Source: Chrysochromulina tobinii (taxonomy: Eukaryota). From it: a DNA stretch of 58,296 bases. The translations under genes were made by a program, and so were the position numbers. A model generated the notes under the pieces. That model was not told the DNA's origin, did no database searches, and saw nothing but the letters and a program-made list of their open reading frames with translations. Positions within the stretch are counted from its first letter, which is position 1. Every line of letters begins with the position of its first letter. This document shows positions 2 to 57,429 of this stretch, piece after piece. The stretch is from positions 1 to 58,296 of the forward strand of contig JWZX01003314.1 of NCBI GenBank assembly GCA_001275005.1, read 5' to 3'.

Positions 2-3000
2 GCGGCAGCGGCGGAGGCGGAGGCGGAGGCGGAGGCCAATGCCAAGCCCGTCGGCATCGGGCGGCCGATGGATGCGATTGAGAGCCTCGACCCACCCAAA
101 TATAGGACGTCTGTGGAGCGAATGGTCGATGGGAACCGCCCGCTGATTGTACGTCTCCGTTGCGGCCTCGACTCCGAGCAGACGGGCATGATCGCGCCGG
201 GCGGCAAGCTGCATGTGCTAGAGACGCGCCTCGCGGCCGACGGCTCCCTCCGAGCCTTGGTACTCGTCGACGCGACCCAGGCGACCGTCGTGATGTCGCC
301 GCGCGAGCGAAGCGGCCATGCTCCATACGACGCTCCGCCCTCGCCGCGCTCGCCACGGCGCGCGCGTGTGCGCCCGACGGTGCCGCCGGACTCGTGGGTC
401 GCCGAGGGTAAGTGGGATGAGGTCGAGACTTTCGACCCCCTCTCTCCATTCTCGTCCGACTCGTCGCCGCACGCCCTGAGCAGCTTCAGTCCGGTTGGGA
501 CCCCTTACGGCACCTCACGGACGCACCGAGCGTCCGTCGAGCTCTTCGCCCGTGATTTCGGTCCGCCGGTGGCGCCCTCCTCCCTCCGCGGGCATGACGG
601 GCACCACGCCTTTCGACGGACGCGAGAGCTCTCGGAGCCCAAACCGCCTCCAGTTAGCGTCGTGCCGGGCGCGAGGACGCGCAGCCCCTCGCCCGCCCTT
701 CAGACGGGCGCCGTGTCGGGCGAGCCGTTGGACGAATTAACAGCGGCAGTCGAGTCGTTCACAGCGGACGTGCTCAGCCTCACGCACGGCTGGGTGACCG
801 CCGCGCGTAACGGGCACGAGCTGCTGGCGCGCATTCACCAGGGTATCGACGCGGGCGCGCGCCGCCATTCGATGGAGCTCTGGGAGCGTCGCAAGGCCGC
901 GGACCGTCTCCTCTCTAAGGTAGTGCAGCATATCGCGTCCGAGGACCGCGGCACGGACGACGCCGGGTCCAAGAAGCTGAAGCTGCACACGGCGGACATG
1001 GCTGAGCGGCGCGCCGGCCCGTCCCTCGCTCACGAGCTCACCAGCATGGCTGAGGATCCAGACGGCATTGGCTTCGCATTCGGTGGCGCGGATCCGGGCG
1101 TGTTGCACGCCCATGGGCAGGTGAGCAGCGTCCTCTGATGACCTCTGAGTGTCCTCCCGATGACCTCTGATTATCCCTTCGGACCGGTATTGCATGCCCA
1201 TGGGCAGGTGGTCAAATTCCATACTGTCCGTTACTCGATAGGGCTCGCCGGCCGTTACTGGCTGCACGTTGGCCTGCGCCAGCAGGAGACCCGGCTGCTC
1301 GGCTCGCCTTTTTTGCTCGAAGTGTCGCCTGGCGCAGCCCACGCGCGCTCGTCCCCCTTGCCGGCGGACGCACTCCCTCTCACTGGGCTGGTGCGTCCTC
1401 TGAAAGGAGGAGAGGTGAGTTGTGAACTGCTCGTGACGCTCCGCGATCGTATGGGGAATCGGTGTACGAGCGGTGGCGCGGCGCTGACTGTGAACACCGT
1501 GATCAACGTCGCGGGCGAGGAGAAGAAGAAGCTCAAGGAGAACGAAGCGGCCGCCGTCACCAACGTCGTCAGCAAATGCGTCGACAACAAAGACGGGAGC
1601 TACCGGCTTGGCTGGACCTCCCAGGTGGCGGGCGTGTACTCGGTGTCGATCACCATCGACAACGTTCACCTGGTCGGCTCTCCGGTGATGATGACCTTGC
1701 AGGCGGGCCCGCCCGAGATTGACCAGATTCAAGTGTCCGGCGACGGCACCCAGCAGGCGCAGGCGGGTAAGCCTGCCCTCGTCGTGCTCAAATGCAAGGA
1801 CTTTTTCGGCAACGTCGCCTCGACGAGTGGCTCTGCGATCTTCTTTGGGCTCCGACTGCTGATCCGCGACCCCAAGGAATCCAAGGTGATTGCCACTGAT
1901 GGCCACTGATGACCACTGATTGCCACTGATCGTCCATGATTGCCACTGACTGCCACTGATGACCACTGATGACCACTGATTGCCCCACCCGAATCGAAGG
2001 ATGCGTGGAAGGACACGTTCCACACTTTCACCTCGATGGCCTTCGAGACGACGGTCGTCGAGGACCAGTACCAGATCTGGTACAACGCGCAGCAGGCTGG
2101 CGATTTCGCGCTGCATCTGTGGACCGACTCGGTGGCGGGCGGCAAACGCAAGCTCCTCCCCGGCTCGCCGTTCAACGTGCGTGTCACAGGCGATAAGGCG
2201 TCCGCCTCCGGCTCCTTTATTCGCGGCATTGAGGCGTACAGTTACGGCCCTGCCGAGGCGTCCGACCTCCTCGCGGTCGCGTCGGTGGCGCGGAAGCGTC
2301 ACGGCAGCACCGAGATCCCCGAGATGCAAGTCAAGGCTTCGGTCGTGGCGGGCGATAAGCTTCAACTCTTCCCACAGCTGCGCGATGAGTTCGGGAACGC
2401 ATCGTTCGCGTCCGACCAGTCGCCGTTCGTCGCCTTCGTCGAGCACCTCACGGGCGCCGAGTCGGGCACCCGAAACGACGTGCCGCTCAAGCAGCTGCGC
2501 GATCTGGGCAAGTATGAGGTGACACAGGAGCTGACGAAATGCGGGCTGCACCGGCTGAGCATCCTTCTCGACGGGCAGCATGTGGGTCAAGTTCCGGACA
2601 AGTTGCCACCAGGGATGGTAGGCTCCCCAGTCTACATCCTCGTGAGCCCCGCGGCGCCGGTGGCGAACAAGTCGATCCTCAAGCCGCCAGAGGAGCCGCC
2701 CACTCAGCACTCGACATGCACGCTCACTCTCGAAACGTTTGACAAGTTTGGCAACCGCATGAACAAGGGCGGCGCGACGATCGCGGCGCGCACGGTGGGC
2801 ACCGGCTGCTCGCCCATCACCGTCGTAGATGGCAAGGACGGAACGTACTCCCTCTCGTTCTCGTGCTCGATCGTGGGCGAGTGCAAGGTGGTCGTGCGCC
2901 TAGATAACGTCGAGATGCCGTCGCTGACCGTCGGGTTCGTCAAAGGCGAGGACCTTGAGAAGGATTTCGAGAAGGAGAAGGAGCCGGAGAAGGGGAAGCC

Positions 3001-3043
3001 TGGCGCGCGCGGGGCCAAGAAGAAGGAGATATCAGATATCTGA
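2..3043 (+). CDS. Filamin/ABP280 Ig-like repeat protein, 5' end outside the window; exons <2-1120, 1208-1885, 2000-3043
   Basis: Repeated filamin-type motifs (LRDRMGNR..GG, DNKDGSY, CKDFFGN, RDEFGN, FDKFGNR..GG, DGKDGTY, GSPF). ORFs 68-1138, 1160-1909 and 2036-3043 are in one frame and joined by two GT-AG introns. The frame is open back to base 2. Confidence 0.8.
1121..1207 (+). other. 87-bp intron with motif A insert; 3' end is a copy of the upstream exon end
   Basis: CAG|GTGAGC...GGGCAG|GTG. Contains CTCTGATGACCTCTGA and an in-frame TGA. The last 21 nt copy the exon end with 2 mismatches. Confidence 0.85.
1886..1999 (+). other. 114-bp intron consisting almost entirely of a 10-mer array (CCACTGATGA/CCACTGATTG)
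   Basis: AAG|GTGATTG...GAATCGAAG|GAT; phase 0/0 restores the frame. GAATCCAAG (exon end) versus GAATCGAAG (intron end). Confidence 0.8.
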
Positions 3044-3505
3044 ACAAGGAGAAGTAGATATCCGATTCCTCGGATTCATCAGAGATGCAAAGCGAAGACG
3101 TCAGATTCATCAGAGATGCATATCGAGCAGAGGTGCTCCACTCATCCCATGGCGCATGCATGAGGCATGTATGTGCGCGTGATGGTCGACGGTGTCAACG
3201 TGTTCAAACTCGGAATGTGGCTGCTGGCTCGCGATGCAAGCGGGAGTGCAATTGTGCAGGGTCCAGGGAGTAGCAGCTAGCACAGTCGGAGTATCATAGT
3301 TGGCAAGGCTGGCCGCTACAAGCAAGGCAACGAGCGCTAGCGGGAGGTTTTTGTAGCTTGTACAGGTCCGTGTGTGTGTGTGAAAAGTACAGGCTGCAGG
3401 AATCCGTGGGCCGAGGGCCCCGCGCCATCTCACAGCCACGCAGGGGCGTCGTTTTGAGCGGATTCGCCAAACCTCACGCGGTCCGAGAGTGCGTGAATCG
3501 GCCAA

Positions 3506-4631: not shown

Positions 4632-7600
4632 TTAATCGGAGCTCAGCTCGCTACCGATGGCCTTCGTCAACAGCGCAGCTAGAAAGCCGAAGAGACAAGC
4701 GACGCCGATCATGCTGCCGCCGTGCTCGAAGGCCTCGGGGAGAACAGTGGAGGCGATCATCGTGAGCATGGCACCGCCGCACATGCCCTCAATGCCCGCG
4801 ATCGTCATCTTGATGCCGTCGCTCCGCCCCTCGGGTCCCACGGGAGGGAAGGCCAGAGCTCCGAGCCCTGCTCCGATGCCAGTGCCGATGAAGATGGCGG
4901 TCCACATGAGCATGATGACGCGAGACTTCATGCCGTAAGAGGACATAATGGCGGATGAGGACATGGCCTCGGGCAGGTTGGCGAGGAAGACGCCGACGAC
5001 GAAGGTGATGAGCGAGGGCATGTCGCCCGCGTTAGCGAGGATCCCAAGCACGAAGGACTCTGGGATGCCGTCCAGTCCGATGCCGAGCCAGATCATGATC
5101 GCCGCATTCTGTGGGGGGGATATGGGAGGGGCAGGGGGCAGGGGGTAGGGAGAGATGGGGGAGATGGGGGAGATGGGGGATAGGGGAGATGGGAGGGGCA
5201 GGGGGTAGGGCATGGTGCACGCCCCCCGTGCACATCCATATTGGGCGTCTGGCGGTAGCGGAGGAGAGGCGCTGTGTAACAGACAGAAGCTCTGGGCAGA
5301 CCAGAGGATAGCGGAGGAGAGGTGCGGGGCAGCTGTGTAGTAGCACTCTGACGCGCCTCACCTTGCCGTTGCCGCCGTTGCCGTGAGCATCTTCAACGTG
5401 CTCGTGCAACTGCTCCTCGAGATTCTCGCGAGATCGCAACCCTTGCGTCTCGTCGCTATGCAGCTGGAGATCGTCGAGGAGGTTGGCGATGTGCCTGTAC
5501 AACTTCTGCGTCTCAGTCGGCGGCAAGTCGGCGCCCGTGGCGAAGGGCATGAACTGGCCCAAGATGCGCGCCTGCTTGGATGTTTGGATGGCTCCGCGCG
5601 CCATCAGCTTGATCCATCCCGCGTCGCTACGTGGCGCCTCGACTTCGGGCTCGGCCTTCCAGCCATAATCGGCGAGAGAGGGATAGCCGTGCAGGCACTG
5701 CTTCAAGCGCGGTTTGGTGCATCGCAACGAGAGGCCCCGCATCTCGCCGCCGGAATCGAGGTCCTGCACACGGCTTTCGGCGAACCTCAGCGACCTGTTG
5801 ATCGTCGACGCCCTCCGACTGCGCGCCGGGTTGGGCACAGGCTTCTGTTCGCGAAGGGCGCCAGCGACGCCGGCCAGAGAAGACGAGGAATCTTGGCGCA
5901 ACCCCAAATCGACTTGCGCCGCCAGATCCTTCGGCTTGGCCTGGGACTCTTGCCTAATATGGGTCTCTTGAGCCTTCTCTTGCCTAATATGGGTCTCTTG
6001 AGCCTTCTCTTGCCTAATATGGGTCTCTTGAGCCTTCTCTTGCGCGCGCCCGAGGGTGTTGTCTTCAAAGAACCGAAGGCGCTTTGGCTGGGCCGTGGGC
6101 GGCGGCTCTCCCGAAGCCCCCCGAAGCTCCCCCGAAGCCCCCGAAGCCCCCGAAGCCCGTTCCCGCTGTGCGCGGCGTTTCGCGCCGCCGGGCGCGTCGT
6201 CACCTTCGCCGCTGCGCCGGCACACGCTGCCCCGGGACGCCATAGAGAGCCGTTGGAGCTTCTTTGAGCTCCTCATAAAGCTCAAGCCGCGAGTGAGGCC
6301 GTGATGGAGCGAGAAGCGTGCAAAGGAAGGGGATATGGGCTTGTCTCCCCCCTCAGGCGAGCCTCCCTGTGGCCCCTGAGCCTCGGGAGGCACTTGTGGC
6401 GCGAGCAGCCGTCGAAGCAGGTCTGGGGGCCAGCCGGACGGAGGCGGCGGCACATTGCCGTTCGGGGCGGGCGGACCATTGAGGGGCGAGGCGAAGGGGG
6501 GTGGCGAGACGAAGGGGGGGAACCACGCCAATCGCACCTGATCCGAAGCGGCCGGATCAGGCGAGGTGGACGCCCGATACAACGCGACCGCCTCCTTGAG
6601 TGGCTGATGCTTGGCGGTGAGCCGATCGAGGTCGGCGCGGGCGATCGTCAGGATCGTCGAGGGCACGCGCACGACCGCCTCCACGCGCAGCTCCTGCCCG
6701 TAGATATAGTGATGCAGCCCTAGGATGTCGTTGGCGCGAAAGGCACTACTAGTCGTCGCATTGAGCTTCAGGTCGACGATGCCGAGCAGAATGAGCACCA
6801 TCGGGCTCTTGTCGTCGATCGCCTCGAAGAGAACGTCGCCCTTGCTCACCTCCGAGTCCTGCATGCACCCCGCGAGCTCGGCGAGCACTGCCGGCGGAAG
6901 ATCCCTAAAGACGCGAGTGTCGCGCAACCGGGCGGTACCCATCTCTCTCATGTGGCGACGCACCTGATGAGGGAGGCAATCAGAGGTCATCATCAGAGGT
7001 CAATGGGAAGGGCGGTACCCATCTCTCTCATGTGGCGACGCACACGCGGATGTTGAGAGACCCACTGATGCAGCGATCTCGATTCGATCTGGAGCACCTT
7101 CGTGTTCGGGCTGCTCGTGGTCACTTCACACGCGGCGGCGATCCCGCTCAGCAGCCCCACATCGCCGAAGATCCGGTCCTTCGACAAGTAAAAGTCCTCC
7201 CTGGGCCTCGTGTCGGCGGCGGTGGCTGACGGGTCGGTGTCCTCGTCTTGGTACATTGTGACCCGAACGGAGCCGCGCAGCACAAAGAAGATGACCGCGT
7301 GGTGGTCGTTCACGCCGTCGTGCTGGTCGGCGTACGAGAACACCACGCTCCCCGTCTTACGGTACACCTTGCGGCGCATCTGATGCGTCAGCTTCTTCAG
7401 ATCGCTTGTCGGCAGGTGGTGGAACATCGGCACGATCTTGAGCCGGTCGATCAACGCCACCTTCGTGCGGTTGATCGCGCTCATCATGCCGTGCTTGAGC
7501 GTCGACCGCTTGCGCATGAAGGCGCCCTGATCGTTCAGCACCTTGTTGAGTGCGCTGAAGAACACCCCACCGAACACCGCCGCAGCAATCGCAATCAGCG

Positions 7601-8629: not shown

Positions 8630-8692
8630 GCTGATGATGAGCGTCCGAATTGACGAATCGCTGATGATGAGCGTCCGAATTGACGAATCGCT
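8630..8692. repeat. 30-bp tandem repeat x2
   Basis: gctgatgatgagcgtccgaattgacgaatc twice. Confidence 0.9.
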
Positions 8693-8704
8693 CGCGTGCG
8701 CTCC

Positions 8705-9844: not shown

Positions 9845-10044
9845 GTCCCGGCGACGCGGCGGCGAAGGCGAGGCCGGCGCGTGGAGCGCGCGCGGCGCGG
9901 CGGCGGAGAAACACCGAGTGTGCGCGTTACCTGGGAGATGGAACAACTTTTACCGCAAGTTTGCCATACTTGTAAAACGTGTCCTGGTCCCCACAGGCGC
10001 CGCGGGACTCTGGTGCGAACCTCGCCTGTGCTGTTTCTGCTCAA

Positions 10045-16594: not shown

Positions 16595-16665
16595 AGAAGG
16601 AGCCCTACCAACGTCCGTGGTCCAGTCCGTGTAGGTAGGAGAGCGGGTTCAGCTCAAGGTCAGGC

Positions 16666-19600
16666 ATGGTGCCAGGCCGCTATGAGAGCCTGGGTTGGGC
16701 CACAGGCCAGAGCAAGGCGTGGCAGGCTCATGCTTCACAGCAGGAGCTCGCGCAAAAGTTGGACGACGACCCAGCGCCACGACGTACACTCGCACGCCCG
16801 CAATCTGCGCCGTCACTTCGCAACGCGCCGACGCTGGGTGAGTCCGCCACACCGGAGCGACCGGCGAATCAGCGCACTGAAGTTCAGCGCCCAGGGACGG
16901 CCAATGCAGCCACGCGCAGAGCTACGCAGCTCAGTCGGGCTCCGAGCGCGCAGCAGCTCGACCCACCTCCGCCTCCGCCGGAGCAGCAAAGGCCAGCACC
17001 ATCTCTGCCGAGCAGTGCGTCGACGGTGATGAGGCCGCAACTATTGGCGGTTGCAGGGCCCGCATCGGCCCCGGCACTCCTGGCCGCCGAGGCGGCCGTT
17101 GCGGCCGTCTCCTCCGCGCAGTCGAGCAAGCCCAAGCACCGACCACCACTCTTCCATCGGCCCGCGCCGCTGCCCAGCTACAATCCTCGCGGTGATCCAT
17201 TCATCCGGCCCGGGCAGCGGCTGTCCGCGGCGTCGTCGGCGGCCATGCATCCGCTCGCTGACCACCTGCGCCCGCCGGGCGCCAGCTCCGCCGAGCCACC
17301 GCCTCCGAGGAGCATTCAGAGCACCCGGCCTTTTTTCCGGGCTGCCGACGACGGCCGTGGCGGAGGCGGCATTAAGGTGAATGTGCGTGAGATGCTGATG
17401 CTGCGCAAGCAGGCGGATGCGGGGCGCTCGCGCCCGCCCGCGCACATCACCAACCCTCCACCGCGCCGACCCAAGGACAAGCTGCCCGGTACGAAGCGTG
17501 CCCAAATGGAGGTTTTGTCGGCGAGTCTGGACTACAAGGAGGTCATCGCCCGCGCCACGCGGGAGAGTCATCGCGGGAGTCGGTTCGTGCTGATTGAGAA
17601 CAATCCGCTCATTGAGGCTGCGTCGCTGCCGACGAACTTTCCACGAACTTTCCACGAACTTTCCACGAACTTTCCACGCACCCCAGCTCGCATGGAAGTC
17701 GATGGCTGTGAGGGAGCGGTCGGCGACGAGGTCGACGAGGAGGCGGAGGCGGAGGCGGATTGGGTCGCGACGCGAACAAAGTACGCGCCGCCAACGAAGT
17801 GGGCCGCTGCGCTCGACGACTACTACGACGAGCAGCACTCCACTTTGGGCCAACGCTCGGCTCCTCCCTCGGATCTGCTTGAGCGCTTTTCGTGCGCGTC
17901 AGCTGCCAACGCCGCCGACGAGGGGTGCGGCACGACGGACGCATTCCGCAGCACGGACGATGCCGCGGCCGAGGCAGCTGAGCGTGTTGACCTCAGTGGA
18001 CTGCCCTCCTTTACCTTTGGCGAGCTGCGGATGCTTCGGCGCTGCTTTGGGCACTCTCGCGAGGGAGCCGCTGACTACGGTGGCGTTGCGAGTGCGGCCG
18101 CGGTACGTGAGGCACTCCGGCGGGTCTGGCCGCAGCTCAGCGCCAGGCAGCTGGCGTCTCTCGTCGACCAGATGGCTGGCAGCATGCCTGGGGGGGGATC
18201 AGATGGAGGGCGCGAGACGGATTTGGTTGGGGAAGGTGTGCCTGAGGCGAGCCTGACGTATCGATGCGTGCTCGACTTTCTCGCGCGCCATTGCCAAAAG
18301 CTCGCGATCGCAATCGATGAGCGCACCGCACCACTCTGCAACACGTTCGCTGAGCCGCCCGACACGGCGCCACCCGCCTGGTACACGTTGCATGCGGCGC
18401 CGCTCAGCCAGATCCTCGAGCTGCCCGCCACAGCGCGCTGCAACCGGCACAAGTTGCTCACGCACTCGTCTGACGGCGTCATCGGGCTGTGGAGTTCATC
18501 CTCGCTCCGACCGAGTACCACCTTCAGCGTGCGCCGCCACGGGCAGCTCGACGGGGTCGGGATGTGGAATGCGAACGAGGACATGCTCAACGTTGCGCGC
18601 CGTCCGCTGTGCGCCGCGTACGTGGCGCAGCACGAGCTGGCTGTGCTCGGCTGCGTCGATCGTCATCTGTACCTGTATGACTGCGAGCACATTGACGGAA
18701 CTGGTGAGCGCTGTGCGCATCGAGTGTGAGTGCATGCTGATTGCATCTCTGAGCACATGCTGAGTGCCCCCTTCATCAGGTGAGCTCAGTGCACATCGAG
18801 TGGGTCATTGGCCGCTTCCCGCTCTGTGCGTGCCTACGTGCTTGACAGCCTTTCTGGATGGCAAAGGGCACGGCAAGCTGGCGATTGGCGACAAGGAGGG
18901 CGCCGTGACGATCTGGGACTCGGAGGCGCTCGTGGCCGGCGCCAAGGGTCTCGCGCGTGGCAAGCGCCCAGCTGGGGGTACAGATGGGGCATGCGTCTTC
19001 CGTCTCCCCAAGGCCCATGCCGATTGGGTCACTCAGCTCACGTACACGACCTCGTTATTCTCGGGTGCCCTGCTGAGCTCGGCGATGGACGGCGTGATCC
19101 AGTGCATCGACCTTGGCGCGGGGGCGGTCGGACGCTCGCTTCGAGGGCATACGAAGGGTGTCTATACCATCGCCATGTGCGAGGCCTTTGGAGGCGGCAA
19201 GCTGGTCTCAGGCGGCCTTGAGCGTGATCTGTATGTGTGGTCGCTCAACACTCCCAAGCCGCTCGCAGTGCTGCCGGGCCACCGGGCGCCCATCAGGCAG
19301 CTGGCCTCCGACGACGACTTCCAGCAGGTGATCTCCCTTGATTCGCTCGGAGCGATGCGTGTGTGGGACTTGCGCATGATGCGCTGCGTGCAGTCGCTCA
19401 ACGCGCCGCCGGCCGAAGGCGAGAATGAGCCGCCGCCACCCATATTAGGCAACGGGCTCGCGGAGGGTGACGTGGGCGCACCCTCGCACAACTCGCTGCG
19501 CACAGCCGTTTCGGCGATCTGGTATGACCGGGGCCGGCGCAGGCTCATCGGCGGCCATCAGCACCTGACCGCGTGGCACTCGCACATGCCCCCCTCCGAC

Positions 19601-25797: not shown

Positions 25798-26805
25798 TTA
25801 GTCCGCGTGAGCCCTCTCGGCCACGTGGCCCGCGCGTGCTTCGAGCGCCGGGTCCGCCCACGCCGGCAGCCGATCGGCCGCAGGGCCGTCCGCGGCGTGG
25901 CCAGCAGCAGCCGACACGTCCTTCGCCTCCCACCCACTCTCGTACTCGCGGTACGAGCCCATGATCCGATCCCAAAACATCACGTACTGCGCATAGTTGG
26001 TGGTGGGCTTGCGGTGGTGCGTCTCGTGGCTGCGGACTGAGTAGTCGATGCCGAGGAAGGTCACACGCACGTCGTACCCCGTGTGGTTGAAGCACGCGCC
26101 CAGCGCCTTGAAGCCGAAATGCGCGCCGACTGCGGCCACGTGCAAGCCAGCTGTGAAGGCGACGATGTGAACAGCCATCCAGTGGAGAGTGAGGGCGGAG
26201 ATCTGCTCGACAGGGTGTTCGTTGGCGGCGTCGATGTACCCGCGCGCCGGGTACGTGTTCCGATGATGATGCTAGTGCACGTACTTGTAGATCGACTGGA
26301 GGTGCATGAAGCGATGCAGCGGCGCATAGAGCATGTCGTCGACCACGAGGAGGAGCCAAAAGGCGAGCGGGCCGTTGAGGAGGCCAAGGAGCTCGGGCGC
26401 ACGCACGATGAACGGCGCGTGCCACAGCAGGTGCCCGATCTGCTGCGCGAACACGTACTCGATCGTCGAGTTGATCAGCAGGTAAGTGACGTCCATGGCG
26501 TTGATCTGGTGCTGGTAGACGGGCTTCGGGCCGACGCGCGAGGGCAGCGGCGGGAGCCTCGGCGCGAGGAACCACACGACGCCGTCGACAAAGCCTAGCA
26601 GCGCCACACGCACCGCGGCGTAGCCCGACAGCCACACGAGCAGGCTCACCTCCCACGGGTTGAGCAGCGCCGCGAGCGACATCTGTGAGCGCCGCATCAG
26701 CGCGGCGGCGATGACGACGACGAGGGCAGACGCTGGATTGAAGACGATCGTCCGCATGACCTCGTGCAAGCTCTGCAGCAGCGGAGGCTGCTTGAGCTTC
26801 TCCAT
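25798..26805 (-). pseudogene. Fatty acid hydroxylase/sterol desaturase family gene with an in-frame TAG in the second His box
   Basis: His boxes HRFMH, VH*HHH and HETHH; also EHPVE and FWDRIMGSY. ORFs 26272-26820 and 25798-26178 are in one frame, separated only by TAG at 26274-26272. Confidence 0.8.
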
Positions 26806-38100: not shown

Positions 38101-41100
38101 TGACGGACCTCGTCCTATGGCTGCAGCTGTGGAGCCAGCACAACCACGCGCGTGTCGCCGCGCTCCATCTCAACTGGCTCATGCCCCCAGGGAAGCTCCA
38201 GCGCGAGGAATTGAGACGGAGCGACAGTTCCAGGCCTACCTTATTTGGAATCGCCGTCGACGTCCTGTGTTGCCTTCCATGGGAGTGGGGTGGGTACGCT
38301 TGGAACCCTTCGCCGTCGGGGACGCCGTTCCTCATGCTGCCGCGGCTGGTGCGCCTGCGCTGCACGGGCAGTTGGACGGACGAGATCTTCGACTACATGC
38401 ACCAGAGCTGCCCGCTGCTCTCTCCGTCCTTGCGCATCCGTCGCATGATCTCCCTGATCTTCGCGTGGCTCATCAGCTTGCATTGGGGCGGGTGCATCAT
38501 GCTGTGGCTTGGCCTCGTCCGGAGCGACAATGCATTTGCTGGCGCGTCTGACTTCGGGACGGGCGGCTCGTGGCTCACATGGGACGCGATGTACCTGCGC
38601 GAGCTCGCGCGAGATGACGAGATCGCATCTCCCGATGACGAGATGAGCCCCTTCCACGCGTACGTGCGCTCGGTCTACTGGTTTATCGTCGCGGTGAGCA
38701 CGATTGGCTTCGGTGACATCGTGCCAAGGACCATCGCCGAGACTTGGGCTATGGGTATCTTGATCGCTCCCGGCGCCATGCTGTACCCGGCGATCATCTC
38801 GGCGATCATGTTGCTACTCTTCGATGCGATCACCGCACGTACCGTGCTTGCCACGACTGTGCGCGACTTTGTGCACCGCAACCGCCTCGCCGAGCCGCTG
38901 CGCTCTCAAATCACCCTAGTCACCGAGCTCGGCGAGCGCTTTCGCGCGGAGAGCAAGCTCCTCCGCTCGCTACCGCCCTCGCTCCATGTGCTCATCTCGG
39001 CGCATCTATACCTTGGCATGGTCCGCGCGCACTGATGGCTGTTGTTTTGCGAATGAGTGCCTCTGATTGCATCTGTACCTTGGCATGGTCCACGCGCACT
39101 CGCTCTCGTGATGATGGCCGTGATGATGGCGGTGTCGTGATGATGGCGGTCATCATCTCGCTCTCGTGATGATGGCCGTGATGATGGCGGAGATGATTGC
39201 CGTGAGGAGCCTCTGAGTACCAGTGAGTGCCTCATCAGGTCCGCTCGGTCTCGTGCTTCCGCGAATGTACCGAGGCGTTTCTGCTCGAGGTATGCGCGCT
39301 GCTGCACACCGAGCTCGTCGTCCCCAACTCATTCATCGCTCAGACTGGTGACGTGACGACCGGCATTCTCATCCTGACGAAAGGCGAGGCGCACCGACGG
39401 CTCAAGCTCCGCAACAGCGCACCGGACGCCGCCGCCGCATCGCTGTCAGCGCAGCACAGCACACCATCCGCCGCCGAACCGAAAGGAGCGCGGGAAGGCG
39501 CAGCCACTAGCGGCTCCGTCTCGTCCTTTGATCTCGCCGATCTCGCGCTTTCGTCGGCCCAGCTCGACAGAACTGATCACTCCATCGACAGATCCACACA
39601 GCTCGACAGCAGACCCAGCCCACCCATGCCGGCTCTCCCTGCAGGGATGGATCTGTTCCAGCAGGGTGGCCTGGGGGTTGGGGGCGGGGGGGTGGCGGGC
39701 TCGCCTTGGCCTTACCGGGCCCTTTCCTGGACGGCTCTCCTGGAGGCTCCTTGGCGGGTCGCTTCTCGCTTGAGAAGCTCGCCCGCCTCGAGAGCGTACT
39801 CTACGGCGACCGCTCGTCCTACTCGCCCGGAGGCACAGCTCGGCAGCCGACCCCCTCTTTACAGCAGACCCTCTTCACAGCTCGGAAGATACCCTCTTCA
39901 CAGCAGACCCTCTTCATTGCTCGGCAGCAGATCCCCGCGGTCGCTCCTGCGCGGACGTCCATCTTCTCGCTGCGTCCGGGCGCCAAGCTGACAGACATGG
40001 AGGCGGACAGAGTGTCCAAACTCACAGGCATGGAGGCGGACAGAGTGTCCAAACTCACAGGCATGGAGGCGGACAGAGTGTCCGAGGTGTCCAGCAGCGA
40101 GGGTCGGGCGACTCCCACCGTCGACGGCTCACCGAGTGTTAGCTCGACTGCCCCGAGCTTCAGTTCGAACATGCTTCGAAGGGCGCCCGACCCTCTACAT
40201 CGACGGGAGGCCGAACCGGCTTTACCGCGAGCCGCCATGCCCGATGTGATGGTGGATGCGATCGCGAATACGATCCTGATCGAGAAGGTCGATGAAGGCG
40301 GCAACATCGGCGCGGAAGAGTTCGTGTTGGGCATCACGCATCGGTACGACATCCTCGCCGTCCAAATGTGCGAATGCATGCAGCTCCGCCGCAAGCCCTT
40401 TAACGAGCTTCTGAGCCGCTTCGCCGAGCTCGGCCCGACGATCCGAGCGAATGCATCGGACGCCATTCGAGCGAGCTCCGAGCGTGACGAGGCGGCCGTG
40501 CGCAACTTCATCAAGTCGCCTTCATCAAGTCATCAAGTCATCAAGTCATCAAGTCATCAAGTGCGCAACTTCATCAAGTCACCTAAGGTCCTGAAGCAGC
40601 TCGGCGTCGGGAGCGGGGACCTCGGTGTGAATGGCCCCAATTCCCTTCGCATTTCGTTACCAGGACCGGCACCGGTGCGGCCGGGGCATCGCCGTAGCGG
40701 CAGCGCCGGCAGCGCCGGCACTGCGCTGGCATCGCTGCAGCGGCATCGCCGGCATTTGTCCGACGGCTGCACCTCTGTAGGTGCGCCTGAGACTGGTGCG
40801 GATGGGCGTGCTCTCGAAGACGCCGCTGGTACAGGCGGCCAAGGTGCGGATGGGCGTGCTCGCGAAGATGCCGCCTCCATCGCGGTCGCCGAAGTCCGCG
40901 ACCAAGAAGAGGCTATGGCGGCGCGCGACCGTGGGCGCCGCCTGCATCCATGTCACCGGACCCTCGTTTTCGCTGTCCAGAGGCTTGGCTCCTCGCATGC
41001 CTGGTCGCTTCTGCTGTTCATACTGCTCCTCTACCGGATGTGCGGCGACACGTTCCGGGCGAGCCTGCACGAGCACTTTGCTCTGCCGATCGAATGGTCA

Positions 41101-44100
41101 GAAGCGCTCCAACTGACGCCTGCCTTGTACCGCGACCGCCTTGAGGCCAACGAGGCCTGGGGCTACCAGCCTTGGCCCCTCTATCCACAGCCCACTGGCG
41201 TTCCCACAGCCCAAAGCCCATCGGGCATCCAGGTTTGCGACCCTAGGGGCCCCGGCGCACAGCAGTACTACGACTCGGTCGGGCTCTGCGTCTTCGACTT
41301 TTTCGTCGACGTGGCCATCGGCATCGACCTGCTCGTGGCACAGCTGCATACAGTGGGCGGGAGCGCCGCCAGCACGGCGAGGGCGGCTGACGCGCCCACG
41401 ACGGCGCGGCGCACGGCACGCCACATGCTCTTCTTCTCTTTGCTCTTCCTGGTCGCGGTGCTTGTCCTCGACATACTCTCCATCGCGGTTGCCGGCGTGC
41501 GCAGCGGCGGAGGCGCGGTATCGGACGCGGCGGCGCAGACGGCGAGCATCGTCTGGGCCGTACGGCTGCCGCTGCTCGTCCTCTTGCCACGTCACCTGTA
41601 CAGCCTAGAGGCGTGGCTACTCGAGCGCTCGCCGTCCACCGACATTCAGCACGTGCGCCTCGGCCGAATGCTTCTCGCCATCTTCGTGACCTCGCACCTT
41701 GCAGGCTGTATCTGGGCGATCATCGGCTTGCGAGATTTCCAGGCGACCTTCGTGTCCAATACGAGCGAGCACGCGTGGTCTGCGTACTCGTGGTGGGCGG
41801 GCGATGTTCTCATCATCGAGGGCGTGGCCACGTGTCAGTCGCTTGCGGTACTGGCGTGGCTGCGCGGCGTTTATATCGCATTCGGCACGCTCCTGATCAT
41901 CCCGATTGGCGACGTCGCGCCCACCACGATGAACGAGACGTACATCATGCTCTTCTTCATCCTCGTCCTGGCCACAGTGGTCGCAGCAGTCGAGGGCACG
42001 GTCGTCAACGTGATCGCGGCAATTGGCAAGGATGAGCACATGGAAGAGTGTGTGCTGGCCAACACGAAGAAGGTCATGATGAGCCATGCTGTCCCGCCGG
42101 TGCTCCAGGACCGCGTCATTCGTTACCTAATCGGGTCGGCCTACCGAGGCGTCGGCAAGAATCGCGCCGTGTTGAGCAAGCTGCCGCCGCAGCTCCAGCT
42201 GGAGACGTCGAAGGCGATCCGCCTTGAGTTGCTTCTCAAGACGAAGCTGGCTGAGCTTCTGCCGCGGGCCGTCCTCGGGTACATCACCAAGGAGATGAGC
42301 GATGTTTTCATCACGCCCGGCGAGCTACTCATGATCGAGGGCGACACAGGCACGTACGACATGTACGTCGTCGTCGAGGGCGTCTTCGAGATCGTCACGA
42401 CCGGCGGCCGCCTCAAAGTGCTCCAGACCCCCGTTCAGCGCCGCAAGAAAGCCGAAGCCCTCCTTGGCGAGAAGATGAGCTTCACCGAGCAGCAGATCGA
42501 ACACATCAAGTCGCAGGTTGTCGCCACTGTAAGCAGCGGCGCGGTGCTCGGCGAAGTTTCCTTCTTTCTGCAAGGCACCGCGCGCAATGCCTCGGTGCGC
42601 GCGGTGACGCGGGCGCACGTCATCCAACTGACGCGCCGGCAGCTCGACGCGGCGTGCGCGCTCTTCGGGCTGCATCGCGACGCGGCGTTCCTCGCGAAGC
42701 TCGAGTCGCTGGTGCGCACGATGGGCGTGAACCAGCGACTGATGAACGAGCGCATCGTGCGTGAAGCCATGGCGGAGGAGGCCTCGCTCCCCGGCACGAG
42801 CGACACGGATCGCTCCAGAAATGTCGGTCGAGGTCACGACACGGCGGTAGGGCTGGCGGCCTTGCCAAACACGAGCCATGCGCCCTCGACACCGCTCCAC
42901 ACGGCGCCCCGCTCCTTACCTGTTCGAATGTTGGCTGAGCCTCTGCGTTGGCTGAGCCTCGCCATCCCGAGGCGTGAGCGGCGGCCGCCCAGCACGGCGC
43001 CCAGCGCGGCGCCCAGCGCGGCGCCCAGCTTGCAGGTCGTGAGCGTCAGTGCCGAGGACGTCGAGAGCTCAGCTGTGACGCTCAGCAGTGACGCTGGGGT
43101 CGAGTTGCCTAATATGGTCAGTGTCGCTGGAGTCGAGCGCATTCCACAGCCGGCAGCGGAGCCCTTCGCTCAGACGGTAGCGAAGCCCTCTGCTCGGCCG
43201 CCAGCGGTTGAGGCGCCCGCCTCGCGACAGTCGTCAAGGCGCCCGAGTCAGGAGCGAGCCCTCCCCTCTGCCCGGCGGCCGGCGACTCCCCGGAGGCACG
43301 TCTATCCACCCTCGACGCTGCCGCGGATGCTGTGGGAATGGCTGATGACCGTGATCTCCTTCTATCTCGCGATCTCGATCCCGTTCATCATCGCCGCATT
43401 CGGTCCACGGAGCCCGGTGAGCGTCGACAGCGCGTGGGCCATTCTCGCGACGCAATGGGCCTGCGACGCGATCCTGCTGTGCGACTCGGTGCTGCGTGCC
43501 AACTGCTTCCCCTTCCTCCCTCGCGGGCGCGAGGTGTTCATGAAGTCCGAGCTCACCCACTCGGCGATGCGCGCGCACTACGTGCAGGCCAAGCTGCGCC
43601 TGGACGTGCTCGCCACACTGCCATATGAAGCCTTGGCGCCGATCGGGTTTGCGACGACGGGTGATACGAAGACGATCCTGCTCGCCGTTGCACTCCTGCG
43701 CCTGCCGCGCTTGCTGCGCTGCTCGCGCTGCCTCGAGCACTTCCGCGTGGCCTTTGGTTGGCTCCCCCCTCAGCTTTGTCTCTCGAAGGCTCAATCACGG
43801 ATGCTGCTGGTGTGGAGCCTCTGGCTCTACGTCGTGCATGCCTTCACCTGCTTTTTCCTCTTCGATGCGTACACGCTCCCCCTCTCCGCCCTCGGGCGCA
43901 ATTGGATGACCGAGGACCTCGCCTGGAAGCGTGCGGACTGGGCGCACGAGACCATTGGGCACTCATACGCGCGCGCGGCGCACTTTGTCCTCTCGCACAT
44001 GGCGACCCCCGGGCTCGGCGACGTGCGGCCGCAGAACGCGTGGGAGACAGGCTTCATCATGGTCCTCGTACTTGTCACAACTGCTCTCTATTCTTGCGTC

Positions 44101-49100: not shown

Positions 49101-51947
49101 TCCCTCCAAAGTATTTGGCCATCACCTGCTGGTTCTTATGGACCGCTGAGCCCCACTCCTTGCCGCTGACCTTGCCGTCGCCGTTCTTGTCCAAACGATC
49201 CCACAGGGCCTTGAGCTCGGCCGCCCCTTGTTGGCTCTCGAGGGCCTGAGCGAGCCGCACGCTCCAGTCCATTTGCTGCAGCGCCGTCTCAAACTCGCCC
49301 CACGTGAGGTCGCCCGAGCCGTCCGCGTCGAGCTTCTTGAACATCTGGCCCACCTCGCCGATGGTGAGCCCGCCGAAGAAACGCCCCATCAGCTTCCAGT
49401 GCTGCCCGATAGCCTTGCCCCACTCCTTGGACGAGACGACGCCGCTCCCGTCGGTGTCGATTGAGTGGAACAACCTCCGCAGCTCCGCCTTCCCCTCCTC
49501 GCTCTCAAAGGCGTCGATGAACGCCTTCATCGGCGCGGCGAGAGAGCCCGCCGCCGCCGTACCCAGCGCCGTCGTCGGCGCTGCGGGCGAGCCTTGCGGT
49601 TCGCTCCCAGTCTCAGGAACGTCGGGCGGCGGCTGCAGAGGGGGCGGCGCGAGTGTGCCCGACTCGGCGCTCGGCACGTCCATATGAGGGCTGCCCTCAT
49701 CGCCCTCCTCCGCCCACACCGAGTTGGGAAGCGCCGTCTCGAGCGGCGGTTTCGCGTCCCCCGCTGCGCGAGCGTCGTCCTGAGCGTCCTCTGCGCGTCG
49801 TCGCGGGCTCCCCGGCGGCGCCACCTTGGGCGGTTCCACTCCCGGAGGACGGCGCATCTGGAGGATCCGCTCGAGCTCGGTCACCTGTGGGGAGAGGGGG
49901 GCAATGACGCCGTGGTGAGCACGTGCATGCTCGGGGCGCATCTGGAGGATCCGCTCGAGCTCGGTCACCTGCTGCACCAGCAGCTCGGGGGTAAGCGAGC
50001 CGCGGCTGCCGAGGGTGCGGCCCGCGCCCACCACGGCGCCCACTCCTCCGCCGGCGCGTCGGCCGTTGCCCGCCCAAGAGGTCACACCGAGCTTCGCCTG
50101 CGCGAGCTCGATGAGTTTGGCCGCCTCGTCGAATCGTAACGTCGACACGTCAAAGTTCGCGAGCGAGCCGCCGCCCGCGGGCGCCGTGAGCTCCAGCAAG
50201 ATACGCAGCACGCGCGTCGCTGTGGAGGCGTCCACCGTCGACGCGTCGGGCGAGGGCGTCGTCTTGGGCAGCCCGGCGCGAGGGAAGCTCGCGCCGTCTT
50301 GGGCGTCGCCCATCGCGCCGTCTTGGGCGTCGCCCACCCCGAGCGAGCTGCTCGAGAGCGCGGCGCTCAGCACGGCGCTGCCGGATCCGCACCCATTTGA
50401 CGAAACGCCGCGCGGGTCACCCGACGGGCCGCTCGCGTCGTTCTGGGCGCCGAGCTGCCGGGCGGCCTGCAGTGCAGGCGCGGCGCGGCGCGTGCCCTCC
50501 CCTCGGCGGCCCCCCTCCCCCCGAGGGCCCGCCAGCTTCGGCGCCGGCTTCGGGGCGCGCAACCCACCGCGCGCCATGGGCGACGCGGGTCGGGTGCCCA
50601 CAAGAGGACGTGTGAACACCTCAAGAGGACGTGTGAACACCCCGCTGGCGGCATACCCAGCGGGCGCCGTGGTGGGCGCCGTGTGCGGCGCCTCGGCTGC
50701 GCCGCCGGCGCTCGCCGTGGTGCGACCAAAGATGGCATTCGGGGGCTCTACGTAGCCTGAGACGAAGCCGGCTGGGGTCGTTCGGTGCGGCAGGGCGTGC
50801 TGCGTGCGGAAGGGCGCGAAGGCGCCGGTCGGCGGCGGCTGCTGTCCCGCGTCTCGGGGCGGCGAGGAGCCTGTCAGATGCCCGGTCAAGTGCGCCGTCG
50901 AGTGCTCGCGTGGGGAAGCTTCGGGAAAGTAGAACTCGAAGCCCCCAACCGTTGGCGGCGTGAGGCGCGCTGGGGCCGTGCGCCAGAGCACACCGACGGG
51001 CTGCTGGGACTCCTTCACATCCTGCTGCTGCTGGCGCACCTGTGGGGAGAGCAGGGCGCCGTGGTGAGCACATGCATGCTGGGACTCCTTCGCATCCTGC
51101 TGCTGCTGGCGAACCTGCTGCTGGCGCTGAAGCTCGTGGCGGTGCGCCCGCGCCACCTGCGCGCAAGTAGGACGCATGCATTCAGGCAGGGGCTCTTTGC
51201 AAGCAATCACCTCTGCCTCCGTCGGCAACCTCATCTCCCACGGCGCATGCAATCAGAAGGCAGGGGCTCTTTGCATGCAATCACCTCTGCCTCCGTCGGC
51301 AACATCTCCCACGGCGTAGGCGTGATGGCCGTCTGGCGGTCATCCCACGCGGGCTTGGCCCTGGGGCGCGGCAGCACGGGCGCCTTGCGCGGCCGTGGCA
51401 CCTCCGTCAGCGTCGCGTGCTCCGACAGCCTCACGCCCCCGACCGCCGCCGTCCGTGCGCTGCTAGCACCGAGCCGCTGGCTCGCCGCCGCCGCCTCGCG
51501 TACAGGGCTGTCAGCGCTCGCCGGATCCACGGGCCCCGAGGCGGCAGAACGCGGGCGCATCGCGCCGTTCTCGCTCGCCAGGAGCGAGCCCTCGGTCCGC
51601 GTGCTCGAGCCGCGCGGGGCGCTGTACTTGTAGCGCAGCGCGTCGGCGCTCGCCGACGTGTGTGCGAGCAGGTCGCCGAGGAGTGCCGCCGCCTCCGCGT
51701 CAGGCATCAGCTCCCCGTCCAGGAGCCGCGAAAGCGCCAAGTCCGCGCCACGTGCAGTATGGCGAACGGACTCGGCCGTCTGGAAAACTGATGCGAGCAG
51801 ATCGTCCTCGCGTTTGCGCGACTCGTCTGAGTGGCGTCGCTGCCGCTGCTGCTGGAGCGCCGCCTCCGTCTCGGCGAGCTTGGCCTTGAGCGCCGCCTGC
51901 CTCTGCTCGAGGACGGTGATTTCCTTTCCTGGCACGGCGTTCCTCAT
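46129..51947 (-). CDS. Large EF-hand protein with coiled coils and two degenerate adenylate-kinase-like domains; intron 51157-51284, probably also 51040-51114 and 49885-49968
   Basis: Four canonical EF loops (DTDGSGVVSSKE, DADGSGDLTWGE, DKNGDGKVSGKE, DADGSGDLTWDE). AK-like motifs FVLNGYPR and VILSNFPR, without an intact P-loop. Confidence 0.8.
49885..49968 (-). other. 84-bp probable intron: perfect 37-bp CAG|GT duplication plus motif B insert
   Basis: 49851-49887 = 49935-49971; insert GCATGCACGTGCTCACCACGGCG..CTCTCCCCACAG. Confidence 0.78.
51040..51114 (-). other. 75-bp probable intron: 41-bp duplication (2 mismatches) plus motif B insert
   Basis: 51002-51042 versus 51077-51117; insert TGCATGTGCTCACCACGGCGCCCTGCTCTCCCCACAG. 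Confidence 0.78.
51157..51284 (-). other. 128-bp intron starting GTGATTGCATGCAA, with an internal ~60-bp copy of the exon-intron junction
   Basis: GAG|GTGATT...GCGCAG|GTG, phase 0/0, joining ORFs 51231-51947 and 46129-51252. Confidence 0.82.
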
Positions 51948-53980: not shown

Positions 53981-54414
53981 GGTCTCCTGCAACTATGCAA
54001 GTGAGGGCGTAGTGAGGGTGAGTGAGCACCCGGTCGTCAATCCTCGGGTCTTCTCATATTTTCGGGGCCGCCGAAAAGAAGTTCCTGTTGGAAGTTCTGT
54101 AGAAAGTTCTACGCCGAACTGAGGCACGGATGCATGCATGCATGAACCCCGGTCTATTCCTCGCGCGCTTCCTTCGTCCATTGGTTCCACGTCATTTTGA
54201 ACTTCTTGCGAAAGGGTCAGTTGAATCGACTTCTTGCGTCACTTCACACTTCTCGTGTGATCGCCACGAGCTCGAGCACCGGCTGCCTTGTGTGGCCAGC
54301 GGCCCGACTCCGCAGCTCGTCTGCGGTGGACGTCTGCGGTGTGGCTGTCGGCCTGGCAGGTGACTTTGCGACCGGGTACTCGTCAAGAGCCGCATCCTCG
54401 AGCCGAACAAGCCG

Positions 54415-56639
54415 ATGTGCAGCCTCGGCGGTGCAGCCTTGGAGCTTCGTACGGCCAGTGCAGGCACGTGTCACGCGACTGGGGCTGACGGCATCCGTGT
54501 ATGCTTTGAAGAGACCTCCCGTGATCCGGGTGGTGGCTATGCCGGCGTGCAGGGCGGTCTCGTGGGACGTGTGGAACTGCAGCCGCTACTGCACGCTCAT
54601 CGCAACACGACGACCGGCGCCGACGACTTGTGGTGGCTTCTCCGCGTGAGTGGCCCGCATCCGCAGACAGTCCTGTTTGATGGCACGCGGGGCGGCGATT
54701 GGGTCGCCCGCTTTCGGATGTGCAGCCCGGGCGTGTACACGCTCTACGTTCGCGAGGTGCTCCGAGCGCCGTGGGCGCAGTGGCGCGACGACCGTTGGGA
54801 GGAGAGGCCCGGTACGCCTCCGTGCGCGCACGGCAACTGGACTGCTGGGGTCCGATTGCGCCGGTACGCCTTTCGCTATCGTCCTGCTGCCTCTGGAGCG
54901 CTTGGTCAATTGCTTCGTCGCCCTGCCTCTTGCAGCTCCGGGCTATGGGCATGGTCCCGCAGCGCGATTGAAGAGGCGTGCGACCCGTCAACCGGTGAGC
55001 CGTCCGGCCGTGCGCGGGGTGAGCGAGCCCGAGCGCTGTCCCGAGCGCTGACCCTGTTGGAGGAGGTTCAACCGGTCCCTTATCCAGAGCATGGCCTCTT
55101 TGGAAACGCAAACGTGAGCGGCGCGCTCGCCTACGTGGAACGCGAGCGAAGCAGCGACGGTACGCTCCCATATTTGGAAGGAGGGACGCTCCCTAATTTA
55201 GAAGGCGACGTGCTTCCAAATACGGCTAGCCAGAGGAGCCAAAACTGCAGCAGGAGCAAAAACTGCAGCAGGAGCAGGGCGGGCACCGCTTGCCGGAGGG
55301 GTAACGACACGCTCATTTGCCTCATGGGGGACAGCCAGATGCGCACACTGGCGGATGGGTTGCTCTCGTCGAGTGCTATGTTAGGCAACAGCTGTGCCGA
55401 GCTCGAGGCCGCAGCCGACATGACGACCTCGATGTCGGCCGAAGGGTCTCTCGAGGCCGTAGGGTCTCGCCGCGCCGCCGCCGCCGCCGCCGCCGCCTGT
55501 ACCGGCCTACGTCAGTGGCGACGACTCTGCCCGAAGGGCACCTCCTCGCAGCCGCCCGGGCGTCCGAAGCTCAAACAGATGCCCTGCCCGAAGAATGCCC
55601 CTTCTTCCGCCGTCTGTCAACGAAGCCTCTGTGACGGCGTCCGCCTGCACTATCTGCGCGTCAACTACGGGGATGAGCTCATCAGCCCGTTTCCCCACAA
55701 GCGAGCGACACAGAGCCTCGCGGAGCATGCCGCGCAGCACTGTACGGCGATCGTGCTCAACACGGGCCAGTGGTGAGTGCTCTCGACGGCGCCCTAATGA
55801 CGGAGTGCCTTTTGATTGCACCGCCAAGTGCCTCCTCTGAGGACCCTCTTCCCCCTATCAAGGTGGACTCCTTCGAACTGATCGCCCTCTGAGGGGCCTC
55901 TGATGGCCTCTGATTGCGTCCCTCATCAGGTGGGCCTCGTGGAAGCGGGCGTCTGCGCTACTGATTGCCCTGGATGAGCCTTGATTGCCCCTCTCATCAG
56001 GTGGGCCTCGTGGAAACCGTCGAAGCCCGAAGGGGCGCAGGAGCCGGCGCCACCGGGCAGGTATGCGCGCACCCATCGCGAGCGCTACCTCTCGCTGATG
56101 AGCCTCTGATGAGCCTCTGATGAGCCTCTGATTGCGTCCCTCATCAGGTACGCGCGCACCCTTCGTGAGCGCTACCTCTCGGTGCTACAGGACGCTGCAC
56201 GCCGCTACGGCACCCACCTGGCCTTTGCCGCCACGAACCCCTATCCCCTCAATGTGGGAGGGCCCCAGTACGCGTCGAGGCGCTCGAAGCCATATGATAT
56301 GGCCGCATGCAACCCAACCGCACGTGAGCGGCGCTACCCGCACGTGCTGCGCGAGTATAATCGGCTTGCTCGGCAGGCGTGCGCCGCGCTGCGCATCCCA
56401 TATCTCGACATGTGGGAGATTGCGCTGCCCATGTTCGACATCAGTGGGGACGGCGCTCACTACGCTGCGGACGCGACGCCGGTCGGACGAGCGCAGGTAC
56501 GTTGATTGCATGCTGATGGCCTGCCTTGCATGCAAGTGCTCACCACGGCGCGACGCCGGTCGGACGAGCGCAGGCGGTGCGGCTCTTGCACTGGCTCTCG
56601 TCGCTCCCTTGCATGCAAGTGCTCACCACGGCGCCCTAG
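54415..56639 (+). CDS. SGNH-like (PC-esterase/NXPE-type) hydrolase or acyltransferase; exons 54415-55772, 56001-56060, 56148-56496, 56574-(3' end unresolved)
   Basis: CLMGDSQMR (GDS block), IVLNTGQW, YLDMW..DGAHY (DxxH). The introns restore the frame. Confidence 0.75.
55773..56000 (+). other. Compound intron of three stacked motif-A units with AG|GT junctions at 55862 and 55929
   Basis: Donor GTGAGT. Acceptors TATCAAG, CCTCATCAG and CTCATCAG are each followed by a copy of GTGGGCCTCGTGGAA (first copy degenerate). Confidence 0.82.
56061..56147 (+). other. 87-bp intron: 37-bp duplication (3 mismatches) plus (CTGATGAGCCT)3 CTGATTGCGTCCCTCATCAG
   Basis: 56058-56094 versus 56145-56181; phase 2/2; in-frame stop if retained. 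Confidence 0.9.
56497..56573 (+). other. 77-bp intron: composite A+B insert followed by a perfect 26-bp copy of the upstream exon end
   Basis: 56472-56497 = 56549-56574; CAG|GTACGT...GCGCAG|GCG. Confidence 0.85.
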
Positions 56640-57429
56640 GCGGTGCGGCTCTTGCACTGGCTCGCGTCGCTCCCTTGCATGCGAGTGCTCACCACGGCGC
56701 TCTTGATCAGCGTCCCTTGCATGCACGTGCTCACCACGGCGCCCTCGGATCGTTCCCTTGCACTGGCTCTCGTCTCTCCCACTGCGAGGCTGCTGAGTGC
56801 TGGCGAGGGTTCATGGTGAGAGACGGTGAGAAGTGCCAGAGCGTCTTCCGTCTACGGGTCGAGAGAGAAAACAGCCCCAGCCCGCCCCGTAAGCGGACCG
56901 GTAACCGAAACCGTGCACGCTGAGACCTGTGAATAAACCTACGTGAGTTGCGGTGCGGCCGCTTTGCCTCCCGCGAAAGTAACCGAGTTTTTTGTGGATG
57001 CCGATTGCCGTCGTACACGGTTGATGCACACGGATACGAAGTATCCGTTATTCGCGCGCCGTACGTGGGGTACGCGGGCGCGCGGCCCGTACTACGGTAC
57101 TAGTATTGTAGTATTCGATTCGCGCCCCACACGGACACGCGCGCGGTGAGCCGTGAGCCGATCGTGTGACCCCGGCGAGCACTATCAACGAAGCCCGCGA
57201 TCCCGGCGGATCTACACACGCGTCAGAGCACATTGTCGGAGAGACTGCAGACCACCAACAGACCATCGGACTCGCAGACCACCGGACTCGCAAACCCACA
57301 AACATGGAACGACATGGAACGACCACGCCCTAGTGCGGTACCCGCCATGATGCGCGGGAAATGTGAGTGAATGTGAATGTGTGTCAGTGTGTGCTGCTCA
57401 CGTGGGTGCTGTTCACATGCACGTGCTGC

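Follow-up and report, generated by a model that had tools for sequence, protein, structure and literature searches.

Introns of a Chrysochromulina tobinii contig pair an exon duplication with a segment shared with other intron ends

Introns composed of an exon copy and a shared insert

We analyzed a stretch of 58,296 nucleotides (nt) from Chrysochromulina tobinii (contig JWZX01003314.1 of assembly GCA_001275005.1), hereafter the window, in which six genes contain introns that pair a duplication of adjacent exon sequence with a short insert built from two recurring motifs. Motif A is composed of 10-mer units such as CCTCTGATGA and terminates in CCCTCATCAG, and motif B consists of GCATGCAAGTGCTCACCACGGCG followed by a C/T tail that terminates in CCCCACAG. 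Both are present at the positions named in the initial annotation, which had described 14 loci of one design. Nine of the 14 are clean single units of exon copy and shared insert, with copies of 24–41 nt that lie far above a random-pair null (a score of at least 12 in about 1 in 3,000 pairs, a score of 15 in none). Four others (36300, 39021, 51157, and 55773) are composite, and the duplication at 1886 is at chance level. The pairing of an exon copy with a shared intron-end segment is thus real. Among the genes of the window we presume a DEAH helicase, PRP6, a myosin, and a TBL-like protein, labels given on the basis of motifs. Coordinates are collected in Table 1.

The introns follow two geometries. 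In the main geometry, a repeat of the start of the downstream exon opens the intron and supplies the GT, and the insert supplies the acceptor. In the mirror geometry, seen at 1121 and 56497, it is the end of the upstream exon that is copied, and this copy provides the acceptor. The process also yields in-frame exon insertions and stacks units on existing introns. At the composite locus 36300, the frame is not recovered by taking out 80 nt alone, and the donor site is ambiguous. Within the composite intron at 55773, positions 55906–55931 are identical to the end of intron 56061. Separately, the three stacked AG|GT acceptors at 55773–56000 (+) make this intron a candidate for recursive splicing.

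The window is GC-rich and is covered almost entirely by mixed-culture DNA runs and in part by six RNA runs. The RNA comparison spanned 17800–21330 and hence two of the 14 loci, neither of them B-type or mirror-type; contig evidence of this kind gives no retention rates, and copy number is not to be read from the very high depth seen across the A array. At 18704, 76 nt are skipped in contigs of RNA runs X12 and X14, which join 18702 to 18779. At 19998, 175 nt are skipped in the contig of run X14 only, which joins 19996 to 20172. Run X13 yielded no record bridging 18704; a piece ending at 18724 with three differences fits spliced RNA aligned to the intron copy. A single 2,403-nt contig of DNA run X4 runs through 18704 with no differences. 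At both loci, the sequence is removed from the mRNA at GT/GC..AG ends, as expected of U2-type introns, and the earlier claim that splicing removes copy and insert is borne out by exact skips; at the other 12 loci, the reading frame suggests the same.

An allele from another assembly (L044, 97.4% identical) independently carries the structures at 49885, 51040, and 51157, which makes an assembly artifact unlikely, and a 5-nt deletion in its intronic copy of 49885 implies splicing there. The concern raised with the initial annotation, that assembly might have created the duplications, is made unlikely by this allele and by the X4 contig. We find it scarcely credible that the units are assembly artifacts or retained coding repeats: those at 22488, 49885, and 51040 are in frame without stops and the RNA evidence is confined to two of the 14 loci, whereas RNA skips combined with retention in DNA contradict the idea for 18704 and 19998, and both the independent allele and the uniform unit length modulo 3 (25/25/24 among 74 main-class units, defined below) speak against it.

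Table 1. Duplication-bearing units and related features of the window
Coordinates	Strand	Feature	Details
1121..1207	+	87-nt intron, mirror type, A-type insert	22/24 copy, 1100-1123 = 1187-1210; splicing suggested by frame
1886..1999	+	114-nt intron built from A-type 10-mer units	duplication 9/10, chance level (null 4-17%)
6964..7043	-	80-nt intron, A-type end	34/34 copy of downstream exon start
18704..18779	+	76-nt intron, A-like end	21/24 exon copy; spliced in RNA contigs, retained in DNA contig
19998..20172	+	175-nt intron, expanded A array	24/27 exon copy; spliced in RNA contig
22488..22574	+	87-nt unit, B end	33/33 exon copy; in frame without stop; putative intron
26945..35029	+	intact 2,694-codon LINE-like open reading frame	sub-threshold endonuclease match; reverse transcriptase-, RNase H-, and CCHC-like motifs by eye
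36252..36379	+	composite; 32-nt A+B insert inside a 48-nt duplication	48/48; acceptor-like end plus exon start
39021..39238	+	218-nt composite intron, A-type acceptor	internal 30/32 copy across donor; exon-only match 9/10
43086..43137	+	17/19 duplication with 14-nt insert of motif C (third acceptor-type motif)	in frame in an open reading frame; same design without intron
49885..49968	-	84-nt unit, B end	37/37 exon copy; also in allele L044
51040..51114	-	75-nt unit, B end	39/41 exon copy; in frame; also in L044; putative intron
51157..51284	-	128-nt intron, composite	74-nt tandem duplication across donor; also in L044
55773..56000	+	228-nt intron, composite, three stacked acceptors	only last unit 55930-56000 has exon copy (18/18)
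56061..56147	+	87-nt intron, A-type end	36/40 exon copy
56497..56573	+	77-nt mirror-type intron	insert carries GT donor, A, and B core; acceptor from 26/26 upstream exon-end copy
56574..56745	+	three additional tandem-unit B cores at 3' end of gene	beyond the initially listed loci

Units, junctions, and donors in other assemblies

An exact scan for motif B recovered 141 stretches from 3 of the 64 parts of a metagenome collection; genome-wide copy number is outside its scope, and the estimated ~2,800 stretches are stored pieces of many assemblies rather than a copy number. Setting aside 40 of 198 matches (12 with short flanks, 28 redundant) left 158 non-redundant sites. A flanking direct repeat with a score of at least 12 is present at 121 of them, against a null of 4.2%. 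Of these 121 sites, 74 are main-class units, in 31 the copy directly adjoins the core, and 16 fall into neither group. For the donor, pair-sharing, wider unit-search, junction-position, and mirror-class analyses, 20 of 140 loci were excluded as redundant or as a single viral match; the latter, L140, holds one B copy with an acceptor in a contig filed as viral and is likely host DNA. A gene at L007, a locus with motif B, shares 99% identity with a cluster to which Chrysochromulina tobinii KOO30830 belongs, with Tisochrysis and Isochrysis as the next named matches.

Main-class duplications are 14–57 nt long (74 units, median about 32), which agrees with the long variable duplications first described and differs from a short target-site duplication (TSD) of fixed length. 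In the 72 units below 100 nt, the duplication measures 31±8, the insert 48±9, and the whole unit 79±8 nt. Longer duplications go with shorter inserts (rho -0.42), as would be expected if total intron length were selected; boundary calling can contribute. Tails are distinct in 68 of these 72 units and traceable donors are found among other introns, in some cases of the same gene, contrary to the proposal of a small fixed vocabulary from one master. The fixed 3' end that marks short interspersed nuclear elements (SINEs) and target-primed reverse transcription (TPRT) is accordingly missing, while duplications of variable length with 5' microhomology, which those systems also leave, are present. 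Terminal inverted repeats (TIRs) were not found among 148 inserts and 157 introns (15-nt end-versus-end scores mostly 3–4, maximum 8), in line with the original description. The mirror geometry recurs in 8 of 22 donor-motif matches, with duplications of 17–39 nt. A complete GT...A...B...AG form (~69 nt of A+B) with a 6-nt duplication and a recurrent leader occurs at L014. A wider unit search returned 291 units against 0 in shuffled DNA; the 129 'no motif' rows among those listed are largely reverse-strand views or coding repeats.

Junctions are concentrated at splice sites. In 64 of 83 units, the start of the second copy falls 0–3 nt within the acceptor, and in 58 of 74 both the intron copy and the exon start with GT, which fits priming on G|GT and also selection for a donor. 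Microhomology of the kind expected from theta-mediated or microhomology end joining clusters around AG|GT and averages 2.3 nt at the 5' junction versus 0.74 in the null, in a small sample of 25 rows with 2 duplicated. Intron-forming units are sense with respect to the host gene, and the statement that inserts are always sense stands for the 14 loci. It does not extend to the process as a whole. At L020, an antisense in-frame 69-nt duplication-plus-B unit has its leader and a variant in common with a sense intron 1.5 kb away. Motif C, CCTAATATGG, which closes an intron-like sequence with AG|GT in L030, lies within open reading frames (ORFs) of the window at 5953-6022, 19449, 43108, 48969, and 49689, three times sense and twice antisense. 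Since antisense in-frame exon insertions exist, the sense bias of the introns is likely due to selection. At the 49689 site, allele L044 has an additional 27-nt duplication-plus-insert. A codon-based strand model was set aside and is not used as support (94 of 110 correct, one training piece out of frame, and known sense sites miscalled).

The original description had predicted an empty site with a single exon copy, and one such pair was found. An 81-nt unit in L113, in frame and composed of a perfect exon copy and an insert, is absent from L017 and L053, with flanks 97.7% identical. Over 53 nt, insert and junctions together are identical to the 3' end of the following intron, 518 bp downstream in L017; this segment matched no other locus among the 140 loci and the window. 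The insert overlaps the target at the junctions by GGTG and GC. Intron gain at this site is favoured over loss, not proven.

Other donors can be traced by hand-read cases, on which donor polarity rests; an automated search was swamped by two loci with core-like exons. At L062, the insert of the downstream intron includes 6 nt from the exon copy belonging to the upstream intron, and the donor therefore lies upstream of the recipient. The segment common to L077 and L086 continues past the AG into the exon, which points to DNA or unspliced RNA as the template rather than an excised lariat. At least 20 nt beyond the B core are shared in 5 of 105 same-locus pairs versus 24 of 20,530 other pairs, and motif A shows local sharing in 20 of 69 same-locus pairs versus 273 of 2,610 others, the pairs not being independent. 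Of 62 units, 8.6 have their best match locally, where 1.8 would be expected.

These observations bear on whether old introns have merely had their ends renewed by tandem duplication across the splice site, sometimes losing the older part and creating no new positions. Such renewal accounts for the composite loci at 36300, 39021, 51157, and 55773 and for whole-unit copy-number differences between L032 and L068 and between L012 and L046; plain tandem duplications are also polymorphic between alleles. It leaves unexplained an empty allele whose filled counterpart matches a different intron, as well as in-frame exon insertions of intron ends, and we hold it to be very unlikely as a general account.

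Several further features were recorded. A channel gene at 40498–40584 (+) contains a 23/24 duplication around an insert of TCAAGTCA repeats, 63 nt, in frame. Perfect tandem duplications of 30–69 nt are common inside ORFs (5947–6043, 21381–21512, 21719–21885, 39983–40070, and 47291–47428), and a 24-nt tandem duplication near 50310 is missing from allele L044. Frame-restoring introns at 14012–14136 (-) and 5109–5361 (-) have neither exon duplication nor A/B ends and serve as ordinary-looking controls. Near 26272 (-), a gene that we take to be desaturase/hydroxylase-like has an in-frame TAG in its histidine motif, which may reflect a pseudogene, a strain mutation, or readthrough. At L007 (~3370–3500), about 80 nt that we presume, from a motif, to resemble a PRP6 exon, followed by B, lie inside an unrelated low-complexity ORF with many in-frame B-like repeats, possibly by capture from another gene. 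The B site near 2591–2613 of L028 (-) has 6 extra nt between acceptor and exon copy, which would add two codons.

How intron ends may be copied

Each unit combines an exon copy of 15–55 nt with about 36–80 nt common to the end of another intron. We put the probability at about one in two that these ends are copied by template switching at microhomology onto an existing intron end and back, probably during DNA repair. At a nick or staggered break, an exon 3' end would anneal by 2–6 nt, usually G|GT, AG|GT, or CAG|GT, to sequence common to the target and a splice junction. Some 48 nt of intron end, with a branch-point-like motif and an acceptor, would then be copied from an intron in the same gene or elsewhere, as the donor identified at the L113 site illustrates. 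Rejoining ~20–40 nt back would duplicate the exon, and the first copy, starting with GT, would act as the splice donor; in the mirror event, the 5' end of an intron would be copied and the acceptor taken from the duplicate. Splicing then excises copy and insert and restores the mRNA, as observed for two introns. Selection would retain sense-strand units of ~57–95 nt, and each new intron would become a donor in turn, so that the process feeds itself. As a tentative extension, AG|GT primers that copy half introns might drive self-propagating mass intron gain without a transposase and be the source of a large share of the genome's introns.

By analogy, theta-mediated end joining would be the closest known chemistry. 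It produces tandem duplications, microhomology, and templated inserts in the portions of the literature consulted (PMC5730883, PMC7202663), and the units resemble it in their staggered-break duplication, microhomology, and templated inserts; it is known as a mutational signature, its templates lying mostly close to the break, and not as a route of mass intron gain. Inserts templated from nearby DNA in either orientation, a trait of end joining, would fit the local excess and some antisense copies, yet most best matches lie at other loci. The initial proposal of templated synthesis is upheld, except that the two mirror geometries, with either the 3' or the 5' end of an intron copied, speak against TPRT that starts at a fixed 3' end of an RNA. 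The absence of inverted repeats and of a single master, the AG|GT microhomology, and the antisense copies make it likely that no one mobile element is responsible.

Several observations weigh against copying by template switching during repair. The donors here lie 0.5–2.5 kb away, farther than the 40–250 bp from the break reported for most theta-type templates in the parts of the same sources consulted (PMC7202663, PMC5730883). For ~53 of 62 units the best match is elsewhere, and most donors are therefore distant or decayed; the five local B pairs come from three loci, and no shift is apparent when all ranks are tested (p=0.36). No duplication above threshold flanks 37 of the 158 B sites, and a conserved 23-nt B core stands beside variable tails, which is partly an effect of the exact-match search. 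Pairs agree in strand at a high rate (91 of 105 for B, 68 of 69 for A), which also fits an RNA template. The empty/filled comparison is a single new site and is unpolarised, precise loss between repeats giving the same empty allele, and the L113 sequence stops before the donor intron. Finally, both tandem copies at 51157–51316 carry the same allele-specific bases relative to L044, which suggests homogenisation or independent re-duplication; copy identity is therefore not a clock.

The strand agreement leads to a second explanation, in which a reverse transcriptase (RT) working on unspliced pre-mRNA switches to the end of an intron and returns, and the resulting cDNA enters the gene by recombination. 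The near-complete sense bias, same-gene donors, and junction microhomology would all follow, and a model of RT template switching and intron transposition is named in section 6 of PMC3443670, as far as that text was consulted. As in that model, each new intron is homologous to an existing one; the introns described here differ in being half introns with a long duplication, copied from an unspliced template and in some cases antisense. The window itself contains an intact 2,694-codon ORF resembling that of a long interspersed nuclear element (LINE), with a weak endonuclease match, which could be a source of RT. Pfam and PDB searches of this ORF found no RT domain, and no clear target duplication was found around it. 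Given also that antisense copies exist and that neighbouring introns are kept rather than lost, we consider this route possible, though unlikely.

A short non-autonomous A+B element is a third candidate: a ~69-nt master like L014 would be moved by a dedicated enzyme, through TPRT or copy-in, leaving long variable duplications and truncated copies. The conserved B core, the recurrent leader and complete form at L014, and the main-class pattern of a variable 5' boundary with a 3' boundary at AG are what it would produce, and a marine Chrysochromulina metagenome-assembled genome (MAG) has an introner family of 72 nt, discussed below. Such an element does not account for a mirror geometry without a fixed 3' end, for tails that nearly all differ, for the host-specific exon fragment of a neighbouring intron in the L062 insert, or for three unrelated motif families that behave alike. 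The longer master copy or small-RNA source once envisaged did not emerge: there is no single master, and an Rfam search of six loci gave three matches, all below the gathering score. Neither motif occurs as an intact unit in the LINE-like region, where the matches are isolated, 8–9 nt long, and on the opposite strand. We regard this explanation as quite improbable.

Relation to described modes of intron gain

Copying of intron ends, the reading that we favour, was compared with published systems as described in the parts of each source consulted. Introners are the obvious comparison, given the many related introns and the division of labor in which one splice site comes from the insert and the other from the duplicated target. 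Their reported TSDs are short and fixed within a family (3–8 nt, as in the introner-like elements of dinoflagellates; bioRxiv 2020.10.14.339549) and both ends are alike, whereas here the sharing is confined to one end, duplications are long and of variable length, and the donors include neighbouring introns. The screen of Gozashti 2022, a preprint, demands similarity at both intron ends and reports for Chrysochromulina sp. a family with a 4-bp TSD, no TIR, and its own 5' site. In the introns described here, one end is a locus-specific exon copy; a handful of full-length A+B introns, L014 among them, might satisfy the screen. The supplement of PMC9860276 gives 12 introner families for a marine Chrysochromulina MAG and includes C. 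tobinii in its genome list only; the text of motif A or B was not found in its family listing. Family 5 of that MAG (72 nt, TSD-positive, TIR-negative, 618 copies) is a possible relative of the window introns, compared by description. The Gozashti 2025 screen lists 0 families for C. tobinii, which the both-end requirement may explain, since it would miss this design. The introns thus lack the TIRs, short fixed TSDs, and both-end similarity that define introners, which agrees with the initial view that they differ from described introners, and also the fixed 3' end that defines SINEs. They do share with introners, as the 2022 screen defines them, presence or absence at a new exon site, in the one unpolarised pair L017/L053 versus L113.

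Other routes share parts of the design. New polymorphic introns of Daphnia pulex, attributed to repair of staggered double-strand breaks, likewise have a direct repeat of adjacent exon and internal repeats (PMC4202315); their repeats are 4–12 bp, compared with 14–57 nt here, where the insert is copied from the end of another intron and shared genome-wide. Tandem genomic duplication of an AGGT-containing exon (PMC3443670) also draws a splice site from an exon duplication and leaves the mRNA unchanged, whereas here a foreign insert of 36–78 nt gives a branch-point-like motif and the other splice site. Stwintrons have no such duplications in the text consulted (PMC8469720). Replitrons, mobilized by a Rep HUH transposase, carry short direct terminal repeats of the element (PMC10288648); the repeats here are specific to the target. 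The C. tobin genome paper mentions introns once in the portion consulted (PMC4580454). No description of this intron design was found in the literature searched, whose coverage excludes most subscription journals and the authors' introner sequence sets. The mode of intron creation is apparently undescribed; it is like intron gain from repair filler, but fed by existing intron ends.

How new introns originate is a long-standing question, and transposons have so far been held responsible for mass gains. In this cultured alga, introns appear to be gained when the ends of introns are copied, with donor, target, and junctions traceable and at least one segregating site, which makes repair-driven and RT-driven intron gain directly testable against each other. 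The design also hints at how stacked acceptors, and precise intron loss between direct repeats, might come about, and it could be overlooked in other lineages by both-end screens. If this reading is true, introns could multiply without a transposon.

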